From an uncultured Chloroflexia bacterium (GTDB lineage Bacteria; Chloroflexota; Limnocylindria; QHBO01): a stretch of 64,000 nt of DNA. Position numbers and translations under genes: made by a program. The DNA lies in the NCBI GenBank assembly GCA_963825525.1, contig CAWGTN010000003.1, positions 96,001 to 160,000 on the forward strand, in the 5' to 3' direction. The notes under the pieces were generated by a model, which was not told where the DNA came from, ran no database searches, and was given only the letters and a program-made list of their open reading frames with translations. Positions 2,152-17,361 of the stretch are shown here, piece by piece; within the stretch, counting starts at the first letter, position 1; the number at the start of each line of letters is the position of its first letter.

Positions 2152-3797
2152 CTACTCCGGAACGCGGATCGGCTGGCTCGGCGCTGGGTCCGTCGTGGCC
2201 GCGGGCCGCCGGAAAAGCTCGAGCTCGGGGACCAGCAGGATCACGATCGCCGCTGCACCTGCGGCGCCCGCCACGGCGAGCCACATCGCAGTCGCGATGG
2301 CCTGGTGGATGGCATCCACGATCTGTCCGATGAGTGGCTCGACGGTCGGCCGCGCCGCGGCCGGGACGCTCGAGAGGATCTGCTGTCCGAGGTCCACGCC
2401 GACGCCGGTCAGGTTGGCGTCGGCAGCGGCGCCGCCGGACGCGAAGCGATCTACGATCGGCTGCGGAACGCCGCCCGCCGCCAGCTGGCGCGGGATCTCG
2501 TTGGCCAGCGAGGTACCGAAGATCGTGCCGGCCAGTGCGAGGCCGACGGATCCGCCGACCTGCCGGAAGAAGGTCAGCGCGCTGGTTGCGGTTCCGAGCA
2601 TTCGCGGTGCGACCGCGCTCTGGACCACGATCGTGAAGACGGTGAAGGACGGGCCGATGCCGAGCCCGGCGATGAACATCCAGAGCCAGACGGTGGTGAT
2701 GGGCGTATCGGATCGGATGCCCGTCATCAGGAACAGCCCCACCGTGCCGACCGCCATGGCCCCGGCCGTCAACCACTTGTAGCGCCCGGTGCGGGCCACG
2801 ATGAAGCCGGAGGCGATCGAGCTGCCGATGACGCCGGCGATGAGCGGCAGCATCTGATAGCCGGACTCGGTCGCGCTCGAGCCCAGCACGAACTGGAACC
2901 AGCGGGGGATGAAGATGACGGCGCCGAAGAATCCGAACGTGATGAGGAACGTCGCGATGATCGAGGCGGTGACGGTTCGGTTGCGGAACAGGCTGAGTGG
3001 CAGGATCGGCTCAGCGGCGCGCGATTCGATCCATACGAAGAGCCCACCGAGCAGGGCACCGATGAGCATGAGGCCGCCGACCTGCGGGTCTGCCCATTCA
3101 CCGGTCTGCTTGTTCGTCAGGCCGAGGAGGAACGGGATGAGGGCTGCCGCGAACACCGAGGCACCGAGGTAGTCGATGGACCGAACGGCTTCGGGATGAC
3201 GAACGGGCGGCAGGAGGCGCCACAGGACCGCGAGCGCCACGATGCCGACCGGGAGGTTGACGAGGAAGACCCAATGCCAGCTGATCGTGTCGGTGAGGAA
3301 GCCGCCGAGCGCGGGGCCGAGGATCGAGGCGATGGCAAAGACGGCACCGAACAGACCCTGGTACTTCCCACGCTCGCGCGGGCTGAAGAGGTCGCCGATG
3401 ACGGCGAGGGCGATCGGGAAGATGGCACCCGCGCCAGTCCCTGGATGCCACGGAAGGCGATGAGCTGGACGATCGACTGGGACAGTCCGGCAAGGAGCGA
3501 CCCGACCAGGAACAGGCTGACGCCGAACATGATCATGGGCCTGCGGCCGAACTGGTCGGAGAGCTTGCCGTAGATAGGCCCGGTCACCGTTGCGGCGAGG
3601 AGGTAGATCGTGACGACCCACACGTAGAGCTCATTGCCGGAGAGATCGGTGACGATGCGCGGCAACGCGGTCCCGACAATGGTCTGGTCGAGCGCGCTGA
3701 GGAAGATGGTGAGAAGGACGGCGCCAAGGATCTCCATCCTGGCGCGCTGGGTGACGTGAACGGGTGCCTGGTCGGGTGCGGGTGATGCGCTGGTCAT
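2152..3797 (-). CDS. DHA2 (EmrB/QacA) MFS efflux transporter; one frameshift near 3435
   Basis: ORFs 3117-3797 (LDQTIVGTALP, GKLSDQFGRR) and 2152-3621 (WHWVFLVNLPVG) join at FRGIQGL/GAGAIFP. Confidence 0.88.
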
Positions 3798-4265
3798 GCG
3801 GTTGCTTCCTCGGATGACGCTGATCGCGCGCGCCGCGGCGTTGAGATCCCTGACCGACGCGGCCAGGCGTTCCTGTTGGGTCGCGTGAGCGACTCGATGA
3901 GCCGAGCGATGCGGTCGCGCCGGCTCTGCTCCATTCTCGGATGAGCTGGCGGCCCTGCTCGGTGAGGGTGACGAACACGACGCGCCGATCGACGGTGTCG
4001 TGCGTTCGCTCGACGATGCCGCGCTCGGCGAGCCTGCCGATGATCCCGGTCGCGTTGGGGAGCGCCACGTCCAGGCGTTCGGCGATGCGACTCATCGGCA
4101 CTGCTCCTCGATCTCGAGGAGTGCGAGCACGCCGAAGCCGACCATGGAGAGGCCGTGCTCCTGGCAGCGAGCGGCCCACGCACGGCGATGCTGGGCCAGG
4201 AGCGGAACGAGCGCGTCGATGATTTCGGCCGCCCGCGATAGGGTGGCGCGCGAGGTTCGAGTCAT
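3794..4265 (-). CDS. MarR family regulator with several frameshifts
   Basis: Pieces across frames: MTRTSRATLSRAAEIIDAL..., MSRIAERLDVALPNATGIIGRLAERGIVER..DRRVVFVTLTEQG, ...SEEATA*; lies upstream of the MFS pump. Confidence 0.8.
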
Positions 4266-4271
4266 CGAGTT

Positions 4272-4311
4272 AATTATGGTGACATGAATGATTATGTCAA
4301 TCGGAATGATT
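4272..4311 (-). promoter_or_regulatory. marR promoter (TTGACA-16-CATAAT) overlapped by tandem AT-rich operator-like repeats
   Basis: -35 at 4300-4295, -10 at 4278-4273, 7 nt before ATG 4265; ATTATG-N7-GAATG repeated with an 18-bp period. Confidence 0.6.
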
Positions 4312-4338
4312 AGCCTTGGAAATCGATGCCCCCCGACT

Positions 4339-4425
4339 CGTGGACGCCGTGTGGATAGCTTCGGAATCCGACCGAAAGTTCGGGGATAAGTGGGCTTGCG
4401 CAGCGCCGGCCCGCGACCCGATACT
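4339..4425 (+). promoter_or_regulatory. DnaA-box-like array plus sigma70-type promoter (copy 1)
   Basis: CGTGGACGC 4339, TGTGGATAG 4350, CGGGGATAA 4381, TTGCGC 4396, 18-nt spacer, GATACT 4420; same layout as 17151-17236. Confidence 0.7.
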
Positions 4426-4427
4426 GA

Positions 4428-4580
4428 GGTCGTCCCGAAGGGGCAAGCGACCGGATCACAAGATTTCGATCATGAGTTCCGGCAGCGGGTTTGGAGGCTT
4501 CGGCCAAAGATCCTGACGGCAGCGGTGGCTTCGGTCACCGAGGTCGGACGCCTGTTCCTTCGGGACATTTCGCATGCCCG
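4428..4580 (+). ncRNA. Unrecognised structured ncRNA, copy 1
   Basis: 24-nt identity to copy 2 at the 5' end; four UUCG-capped hairpins; compensatory changes relative to copy 2. Confidence 0.75.
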
Positions 4581-4590
4581 CGGAGGATCG

Positions 4591-5352
4591 ATGAGCGTGA
4601 CACCGGACGTCGGGCCCGGCGCCCGCGTCCACGACATTCGCGTCGCGGATGACGCCGAGGCCTTCCTGGTCGAGCCCGAAGAGGGCGGACGCGGGCCAGC
4701 GGTGCTCTTCCTCCACTGGTTCGACACCGAAGCGACCGATGGAAACCGCACGCAGTTCCTGGACGAGGCTGCGCACCTTGCGCGCGACCGCGGCGTCGTC
4801 TCCATCCTGCCGCAGGGTCGCTTCCCATGGGCCGGGGATCCTTCCGACGCAGCCAGCGACATCGAGCGCATCGGCGCGGAAGTCGCGGCCCATCGGGCGG
4901 CCGTGGATCTCCTCAGCGCCCGTGACGATGTCGATCCATCGCGCATCGGCCTTGTCGGGCACGATTTCGGGGCCATGCACGGCGTGCTGCTGGCGGCCGA
5001 CGACACGCGCATCTCGGCCATGGTCATCATCGCCGCCACGCCCCGCTGGGGGGATTGGTTCCTTCCGTTCTGGGCGATCGATGGCGATCGGCACGACTAC
5101 CTCCGCGCGCTGGCTCCGGTTGACCCGATCTCGCGGATCGCCGACGTGGCGCCCCGGCCGATCTACCTGCAGTTCGCCCGCAACGACTTCTTCATTGCCG
5201 CCATGACCGGGCTGGAGCTGCACCGTGCCGCCGCCGAGCCCAAGGAGATGCGCGCGTACGACGCCGACCATGGGATGCGCGTGAGCGAAGCGCGCGACGA
5301 CAGGGTCGCGTTCTTCGACCGCACGATCCTCTCGGAGCGCCCGACCGGCTGA
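4591..5352 (+). CDS. Alpha/beta hydrolase (dienelactone hydrolase/acetyl xylan esterase-like) with GHDFG elbow
   Basis: VDPSRIGLVGHDFGA, QFARNDFF, YDADH; GGAGG before ATG 4591. Confidence 0.85.
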   Translation: MSVTPDVGPGARVHDIRVADDAEAFLVEPEEGGRGPAVLFLHWFDTEATDGNRTQFLDEAAHLARDRGVVSILPQGRFPWAGDPSDAASDIERIGAEVAAHRAAVDLLSARDDVDPSRIGLVGHDFGAMHGVLLAADDTRISAMVIIAATPRWGDWFLPFWAIDGDRHDYLRALAPVDPISRIADVAPRPIYLQFARNDFFIAAMTGLELHRAAAEPKEMRAYDADHGMRVSEARDDRVAFFDRTILSERPTG

Positions 5353-17150: not shown

Positions 17151-17236
17151 CGTGGATGGGGTGTGGATAGCCCGCGCCTGACGTCATGGATTCGGGGATA
17201 AGGGGGATTGTTTCGTCAGCGGAGGGCAGAGATACT
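17151..17236 (+). promoter_or_regulatory. DnaA-box-like array plus sigma70-type promoter (copy 2)
   Basis: CGTGGATGG 17151, TGTGGATAG 17162, CGGGGATAA 17193, TTGTTT 17208, 17-nt spacer, GATACT 17231. Confidence 0.7.
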
Positions 17237-17238
17237 TT

Positions 17239-17361
17239 GGTCGTCCCGAAGGGGCAAGCGACACCGGATCACACGGCTTCGGTCATGGGTTTCGGTGCCG
17301 GCAACGGAGGCTTCGGCCGCCGAGGTCGGGCGCCTGTTCCTCCGGGGCATTTTCGTGCCCG
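17239..17361 (+). ncRNA. Unrecognised structured ncRNA, copy 2
   Basis: Homologous to 4428-4580; UUCG/UCCG hairpins; opposite strand to both neighbouring genes. Confidence 0.75.

Follow-up and report, generated by a model that had tools for sequence, protein, structure and literature searches.

The locus

The DNA considered here, referred to as the window, is a stretch of 64,000 nucleotides from an uncultured Chloroflexota bacterium (positions C3:96001-160000 of an assembly of 2.58 Mb with 68.5% G+C and a completeness of 92%). It contains two genes for a small RNA, each preceded by an array of three short sequences (denoted boxes A, B, and C) that resemble the binding site of the replication initiator DnaA and that stand at fixed distances from one another and from the promoter. 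The best explanation of the array is that it forms a conserved upstream control region of a small-RNA gene family with five genes in this genome, two of them in the window. The elements of both copies are as follows.

4339..4347, + strand: box A, copy 1; CGTGGACGC, with the 8-nt core CGTGGACG from 4339, of the form CGTGGAyG
4350..4358, + strand: box B, copy 1; TGTGGATAG, one mismatch to TGTGGATAA, starting 11 bp after A
4381..4389, + strand: box C, copy 1, the promoter-proximal box; CGGGGATAA, starting 31 bp after B
4396..4401, + strand: -35 element, copy 1; TTGCGC, 6 nt after box C
4420..4425, + strand: -10 element, copy 1; GATACT, spacer of 18 nt
4432..4570, + strand: small RNA, copy 1; about 139 nt, with its end inferred past a 3′ hairpin and AUUU
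17151..17159, + strand: box A, copy 2; CGTGGATGG, with the 8-nt core CGTGGATG from 17151
17162..17170, + strand: box B, copy 2; TGTGGATAG
17193..17201, + strand: box C, copy 2; CGGGGATAA
17208..17213, + strand: -35 element, copy 2; TTGTTT, 6 nt after box C
17231..17236, + strand: -10 element, copy 2; GATACT, spacer of 17 nt
17243..17353, + strand: small RNA, copy 2; about 110 nt, with one internal hairpin fewer than copy 1

The initial annotation of this DNA had described two arrays of identical layout, and a reading of the window together with an alignment of both regions places every element of both copies where it had been reported. The same alignment bears out the description of the DNA between the boxes as unrelated in sequence and equal in length, as the 22 nt between B and C are identical at 6 of 22 positions between the copies. 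Phasing of the boxes on one face of the helix, which had also been proposed, agrees with separations of 11, 31, and 42 bp, or approximately 1, 3, and 4 helical turns. Boxes A and B together make up a double box in the same orientation with a 2-bp gap (11 bp start to start). The two best boxes in the window differ from the consensus TTATCCACA (TGTGGATAA) by the claimed one or two nucleotides, with one mismatch in B and two in C, and box A has three mismatches to TGTGGATAA in the window copies. The composite pattern GTGGATAG-N(18-26)-TTCGGGGATAAG has two matches in the window against 0.00 expected from 100 shuffles, and a chance origin of the array is excluded.

The start of the RNA is placed by inference at the G of GUCCC (4432), 7 nt past the -10 element. 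Counted from this start, box A spans -93 to -85, box B -82 to -74, box C -51 to -43, and the -35 element -36 to -31. The core promoter agrees with the E. coli-type consensus at 3 of 6 positions in the -35 element (TTGACA) and at 4 of 6 in the -10 element, 7 of 12 in total, and a consensus promoter scan calls neither RNA promoter. Such a promoter favors activation and is in keeping with a need for an activator. A near-consensus sigma-70-type promoter (TTGACA, 16 nt, CATAAT; 11 of 12 matches) lies on the opposite strand at 4273-4300 (-), about 40 bp upstream of box A. It faces a MarR-family gene at 3631-4179 (-) and points away from the RNA gene, so that the boxes of copy 1 lie between divergent promoters.

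Box pairs and RNA genes across the genome

A genome-wide search with the two conserved portions of the RNA, 5′ and 3′, yields five loci, two in the window and three elsewhere.

C2:1752446, + strand: RNA locus
C2:1064762, - strand: RNA locus
C2:947014, + strand: RNA locus

All five have the same upstream layout, in which a TGTGGATAA-type box is followed by a second box 31 bp on, 6 nt, a -35-like hexamer, 17-18 nt, and a -10 element. The box B sequence TGTGGATAG occurs twice in the 2.58-Mb genome, both times at the window arrays, and GGGGATAA occurs four times, two of them at these arrays. The relaxed pattern nG[T/G]GGAnA[A/G] has 443 matches in the genome, which form 15 same-strand pairs at most 80 bp apart. 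Five of these 15 pairs are exactly 31 bp apart, and each of the five is upstream of one of the five family RNAs; the other close pairs include those at ftsZ (21 bp) and at the origin (41 bp). The gene for DnaA is at 1.52 Mb of contig C2, and the RNA loci, at 0.95, 1.06, and 1.75 Mb of C2 and on contig C3, are not clustered by the origin.

Conservation of the array in relatives

A 14-nt motif at the 5′ end of the RNA is present in 62 of 63 genomes of the genus. With this motif as the sole basis of choice, and with the boxes ignored, 88 loci that have at least 112 nt of upstream DNA were taken from 32 genomes. L156 and L164, which are without the RNA 3′ motif, promoter, and boxes and read like coding sequence, were judged to match by chance and set aside, and 86 loci remain. 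Box C is found at its position in all 86, box B at its offset in 84 (as nGTGGAnAn), and box A at its offset in 69 (as nG[T/G]GGAnnn). The distance from B to C is 31 bp in 85 of 85 loci, and the 86th carries the variant TGTGGGTAA in the same place. The register continues into the promoter, where TTG stands exactly 15 nt past the start of box C in 82 of the 86 loci and a -10 hexamer of the form nAnnnT is found in every one, after a spacer of 18 nt in 74, 17 nt in 9, 16 nt in 2, and 19 nt in 1. Across the 86 loci, box B has a mean pairwise identity of 0.88 and box C one of 0.86, in comparison with 0.37 for the DNA between them. Information content is likewise highest at the three boxes, the -35 element, and the -10 element, and is at most 0.3 bits in the columns between B and C.

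The family has a long and a short RNA type, and the boxes differ between the two. Long-RNA loci have CGGGGATAA as box C in 48 of 48 cases and TGTGGAyAG as box B in 46 of 48. Short-RNA loci have a canonical GTGGA core in box C (38 of 38) and a perfect TGTGGATAA as box B in 31 of 38. Bases that do not belong to a DnaA box are also conserved around box C, namely AA at -5/-4, T at -1, and GG at +11/+12.

Contigs of the metagenome-assembled genomes often stop within or beside the RNA genes (many loci, for example L119, L124, L129, L132, L157, and L160), and some genomes hold near-identical duplicate copies of the RNA (L007/L029, L157/L160, and L144/L145). Contig ends at these genes and near-identical copies point to assembly breaks induced by repeats and to gene conversion between paralogues.

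The spread of the array across the class was followed in 301 genomes with the pattern TGTGGAYAR-N23-GKGGANAA, which is equivalent to B-N22-C, and with the reversed pattern as a control. Within the same family, the pair is found in 97 of 103 genomes and in 19 of 20 genera besides this one. The counts in four other families (f2 to f5) are 1 of 92, 6 of 91, 0 of 12, and 0 of 2 genomes, respectively, and the reversed pattern has a single match in all 301 genomes. Among 30 inspected loci, most are arrays followed by a homologous RNA at equal distance, including the loci of family f3 (L175-L180). The pair stands in other contexts at L181, L187, and L194. At six loci of one other genus (L196-L198 and L200-L202) it overlaps the promoter of a gene for a DivIC/FtsB-type septum initiator, with box C between the -35 element TTGCAC and the -10 element TAGACT, a position that suggests repression there. 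These tallies include the unpublished genomes G006, G047, G048, G139, G148, G206, and G284, none of which is decisive. According to the initial annotation, a loss of the boxes and their spacing from additional homologues would have spoken against a role of DnaA; both are kept in the 86 loci of 32 genomes and in the class-wide search.

Likeness to the origin boxes, and the DnaA of the lineage

The dnaA gene is found at position 1520182 of contig C2 (PF00308 match), with dnaN next to it. The intergenic regions between dnaA and dnaN of this genome and 11 relatives, 6159 nt in total, serve as a sample of the boxes used at the origin. TGTGGAC occurs there 20 times against 0.45 expected (approximately 40-fold) and is present in 10 of the 12 regions. 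GTGGACG, the commonest box form in the sample, occurs 35 times against 2.27 expected (15-fold), and GTGTGGA and GTGGACA are likewise among the top enriched 7-mers. The origin regions open with three same-strand boxes, nGTGGATAA, nGTGGAAAA, and TGTGGACAn, that are 20-21 bp apart, and these are followed by arrays of GTGGACG boxes on the opposite strand. Comparison with oriC, which had been put forward as a check on the array, finds that the forms of A, B, and C match the boxes of the origin regions, except for the GGGGA core of the long-RNA box C.

Domain IV of this DnaA aligns to the DNA-bound E. coli domain 1J1V (E 2.9e-16) and also to 8BTG, and its signature is GGRDHSTV here and GGRDHTTV in E. 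coli, a single Thr-to-Ser change. Chromatin immunoprecipitation sequencing of E. coli DnaA, as described in the available part of the source, shows a preference for box pairs 2-3 bp apart and an abolition of binding when the spacing is altered (PMC11317965). The 2-bp gap and single orientation of A and B are the geometry of the E. coli double box reported there.

The origin regions have two further features. A conserved abutting box pair, 9 bp start to start, is found in them (L034:2518-2908; L035-L043, L053, and L079), and GAGAAGATA/TATCTTC is enriched approximately 160-fold, with 13 occurrences in 8 of the 12 regions.

Boxes at other genes

Perfect TGTGGATAA boxes are found at seven sites of the genome. 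Two of these are upstream of family RNAs and three are upstream of ftsZ, thyX, and a parA-like gene; a second parA-like gene is preceded by TGTGGACAA. The region upstream of ftsZ (Pfam Tubulin and FtsZ_C; C1:266082-266230) contains TGTGGATAA, then TGTGGAAAA 21 bp on, and after about 28 nt the hexamer TAGAAT. Both the box forms and the 21-bp spacing match the origin regions of several relatives. The thyX gene (Pfam Thy1) has an inverted pair of perfect boxes upstream, and the two ParA-like genes that are also preceded by boxes encode ATPases (thyX and ParA-like box sites at C2:1273598-1273650, C1:233238-233299, and C2:1487357). By eye, 27-30 nt separate the end of the proximal box at ftsZ, parA, and thyX from a -10-like hexamer, a distance similar to that at the RNA genes.

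Binding of DnaA at the promoters of ftsZ in Caulobacter and ftsL in B. subtilis is described in the literature, as summarized in the available text of PMC10532879. The boxes at ftsZ, parA, thyX, and the DivIC gene thus resemble the kind of regulon known for DnaA elsewhere, as far as it is set out in that text (PMC10532879). A lone double box, made up of TGTGGACAA, a 3-bp gap, and CGTGGACAG, is present at C1:17736-17756, where no downstream gene is identified.

Proposed control by DnaA and alternative explanations

Judged from the sequence and geometry of the boxes, DnaA probably binds the array and controls transcription of this family of small RNAs with clamped ends, and if it does so it probably acts as an activator. 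Taken by itself, activation of the RNA genes is credible at somewhat below an even chance, and repression is distinctly the less likely sign. For activation, the order of events would most likely be as follows. DnaA would first occupy the good double box formed by A and B, and from there it would help another DnaA to load cooperatively at box C, a weaker site that lies on the same face of the helix. At box C, DnaA would contact RNA polymerase beside the -35 element of the weak core promoter, and RNA output would follow the amount or the nucleotide state of DnaA. In the second option, a spreading DnaA oligomer would repress the RNA promoter. The first arrangement has a precedent at E. coli nrdAB, where DnaA on upstream high-affinity boxes stabilizes RNA polymerase, according to the available portion of a review (PMC8203912).

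Several observations weigh against control by DnaA or limit how far it can be taken. Box A is absent from 17 of the 86 loci, mainly those of one short-RNA type. The origin regions hold 93 sites with a GTGGA core versus 20 with a GGGGA core, and those with GGGGA are without the ATAA tail. Because GGGGA is not the enriched form at the origin, the long-RNA box C may, from its sequence, be a very weak DnaA site or the site of another factor. Upstream of dnaA itself, 580 nt (L034:601-1180) have no match to nG[T/G]GGAnnn on either strand. The dnaA promoters of model bacteria are autoregulated and are the classic member of the set of promoters controlled by DnaA. This textbook arrangement is therefore not seen here, which bears on the regulon and not on the RNA promoters. 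Weakness of the core promoter is judged by the standard of E. coli, and the consensus may differ in Chloroflexota. The repression-like layout at the DivIC gene suggests that control at the RNA genes could have either sign. Lastly, the genomes are related to one another, and counts of loci and genomes overstate their independence.

The repeats could instead be read by another factor, such as a winged-helix response regulator, with the likeness to DnaA boxes partial or coincidental; in that case too, the array would serve the RNA genes as an upstream activating sequence. Same-orientation repeats at about 11 bp are typical of OmpR/PhoB-type regulators, and the same-orientation repeats A and B, 11 bp apart, fit this geometry. 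The GGGGA core of box C in all 48 long-RNA loci, which is not the origin form, and the conserved bases that flank box C outside the DnaA box also point in this direction. Nevertheless, such a factor is an unlikely reader of the array, as the same box words are the top enriched ones in the dnaA-dnaN regions and recur upstream of ftsZ, parA, and thyX. In addition, short-RNA loci carry the canonical GTGGA in box C (38/38) and the perfect TGTGGATAA in box B (31/38), and the neighbors of copies 1 and 2 include no common regulator gene. An explanation that keeps DnaA and changes the purpose of binding is that the loci mainly handle the protein by titration, in the manner of datA or DARS, with an RNA promoter that is incidental or that keeps the DNA open. 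The initial annotation had named this alternative. In E. coli, chromosomal boxes are reported to titrate DnaA, according to the available part of PMC12371093. The five loci, with 2-3 boxes each, are a sizeable share of the clustered boxes of the genome, and 9 of the 15 close same-strand pairs are at RNA loci, the origin, or ftsZ. A pure titration site has no need of the rigid register of box C to the -35 and -10 elements, however, and the placement of TTG 15 nt past the start of box C in 82/86 loci makes handling of DnaA a less likely primary role. Both the sequence and the structure of the RNA transcribed from these loci are conserved, each locus has just three boxes in one orientation, and the loci are scattered away from the origin. 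Handling as the main function of the loci is accordingly improbable.

Two further explanations dispense with a bound regulator. If the boxes were intrinsic promoter elements read by RNA polymerase, either UP-like or as an extended -35 element for a particular sigma factor, the position of box C directly upstream of the -35 element and its conserved flanks would be accounted for, and promoter rules may differ in this phylum. Boxes A and B, however, are 38-57 bp upstream of the -35 element, too far for contact with sigma, and are separated from C by 22 unconserved nt. The same words are also enriched in the origin region, where promoter function is not expected, and this explanation is slightly more improbable still than the handling of DnaA. 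The boxes could also be relics, kept without selection, of a recent event that duplicated the RNA gene along with the DNA upstream of it. The near-identical duplicates in some genomes show that duplication or gene conversion does occur. Between the window copies, though, boxes B and C are identical while the DNA between them agrees at 6/22 positions, and across the 86 loci and about 20 genera the boxes are kept and the inter-box DNA is not, which already refutes a duplication relic and leaves it a nearly negligible chance.

Comparison with known systems

Control of the RNA genes by DnaA would have its closest likeness in E. coli nrdAB-type promoters, in which 9-bp TGTGGATAA-type boxes are also placed just upstream of the -35 element as a mix of good and weak sites (PMC8203912, available text). 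At nrdAB, the same source attributes to this mix an activation at low DnaA-ATP and a repression at high DnaA-ATP (PMC8203912). The arrays here differ from nrdAB in the multi-copy small RNA that they precede, in the third box at a fixed 31 bp, and in the 3-5 paralogous genes per genome. The DnaA regulon of Caulobacter (ftsZ, gcrA) likewise ties the replication initiator to cell-division genes. Caulobacter also has a cell-cycle noncoding RNA, CcnA, whose gene has weak DnaA boxes, is inside the origin, and is presumably activated by CtrA, as stated in the available part of PMC8959179. Unlike the gene of CcnA as described there, the RNA genes here are away from the origin and have a rigid promoter register, and the RNAs have no likeness to it in sequence or structure. 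DnaA sites near a few Caulobacter noncoding RNAs are predicted by a bioinformatic survey (PMC5988900, seen in its available text).

Noncoding clusters of DnaA boxes outside oriC are likewise represented by datA and DARS1/2 of E. coli and by the DnaA-box clusters and sda promoter of B. subtilis. These loci act on DnaA itself or have many boxes; datA and DARS have more boxes than the arrays here or boxes in mixed orientations, as well as an IHF site, and they work without a promoter. The loci here, in contrast, have three boxes in one orientation, locked to a promoter, and a conserved RNA product. In organization, the family resembles Qrr1-5 (controlled by LuxO) and to RsmX/Y/Z and CsrB/C (controlled by GacA/UvrY), which are multi-copy small RNAs with one regulator and a conserved upstream sequence. 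Several paralogous RNA genes, a shared upstream sequence at a fixed distance, and differing flanking genes are common to all of these. The DnaA-type motif sets the present family apart, and its RNA is without GGA-loop repeats and without a sigma-54 promoter.

The protein genes known to have DnaA as a transcription factor number a few dozen. A 2021 review of DnaA (PMC8203912) has the terms ‘sRNA’, ‘small RNA’, and ‘non-coding’ nowhere in its text, and a literature search that left most subscription journals outside its reach found no publication on this RNA family or on any small-RNA family controlled by DnaA. The nearest published items, as far as their available texts extend, are the Caulobacter noncoding RNA predictions (PMC5988900) and the CtrA-driven CcnA (PMC8959179). 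In the present case, a single promoter design, consisting of a double box, a box 31 bp on, and a weak core, is kept across a bacterial family and serves all members of a multi-copy family of small RNAs. If DnaA does bind it, DnaA would be a master regulator of a riboregulator, and the array would offer a testable cis-code for contact between DnaA and RNA polymerase in terms of box quality, the 11-bp and 31-bp spacings, and the 6 bp to the -35 element. The pattern suggests that replication status may control RNAs of uncultured soil and freshwater Chloroflexota.

The small RNA

In both copies, the ends of the RNA are clamped by a terminal helix. In copy 1, 4432-4444 is paired with 4554-4566 and encloses interior hairpins with UUCG loops. 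In copy 2, the 3′ strand of the helix is 17336-17348 and is followed by ATTTT; a scan reports positions 17335-17349, with TTTT after them, as a terminator-like hairpin. This strand of the RNA is also able to fold as a local hairpin with AUUU behind it. In a consensus fold by RNAalifold of 20 long and 5 short RNAs, the initial 13 nt are paired with the final 13 nt, and 36 short RNAs from several genera, which have a 12-bp terminal helix, show compensatory changes at two pairs (UA 25, UG 7, GC 3, GU 1; and AU 30, GU 5, GC 1). Within the terminal helix are one to three hairpins, many of them with UUCG loops. The motif GAUyrCAUCAAsG (window 4462-4475) is conserved in both RNA types, short and long, and in two bacterial families, and the consensus folds leave part of it unpaired; it is the best candidate for a functional contact site.

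Ends clamped by a long terminal helix and variable inner arms are also found in Y RNAs and bacterial Y-like RNAs. Identity as a Y RNA or YrlA is rejected, given that no Ro60/TROVE gene (PF05731) is found in the 92%-complete genome and that Rfam has no match. In the 64-kb window, no Rfam family reaches its gathering score, and the best hits on 4300-4620, P26 (E 2.1) and MEG3_2 (E 8.7), are both taken as chance.

It is conceivable, though unlikely, that the small RNAs carry the post-transcriptional output of a cell-cycle circuit centered on DnaA, in which the RNA adjusts division, segregation, or replication functions or DnaA itself. The level or nucleotide state of DnaA would then set the dose of a multi-copy, very stable, clamped RNA. 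When the inner 40 nt of one short RNA are ranked by duplex energy against positions -70 to +30 of 7165 crude open reading frame starts, dnaA is 1164th, thyX 4909th, and dnaN 7140th; ftsZ is outside this set and the top matches look like false reading frames. The ranking is uninformative because gene starts are unreliable in a high-GC genome. The complement of the conserved CAUCAACGG motif has 40 sites.

Contigs from three RNA libraries (freshwater sediment, ice, and soil, all from relatives) span 4432-4573 and are a weak hint that the RNA is expressed. They are Logan contigs from runs that contain only 0.06 of the sampled words, and they can show coverage of the RNA body and not starts, ends, or levels; low or zero depth over the promoter and past 4586 carries no meaning. 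One of them runs from the boxes into the RNA, which indicates DNA or read-through. The genes next to the two copies differ, with copy 1 between the MarR gene and a hydrolase gene and copy 2 between an EamA gene and an AAA_33 gene, and both are thus free-standing RNA genes.

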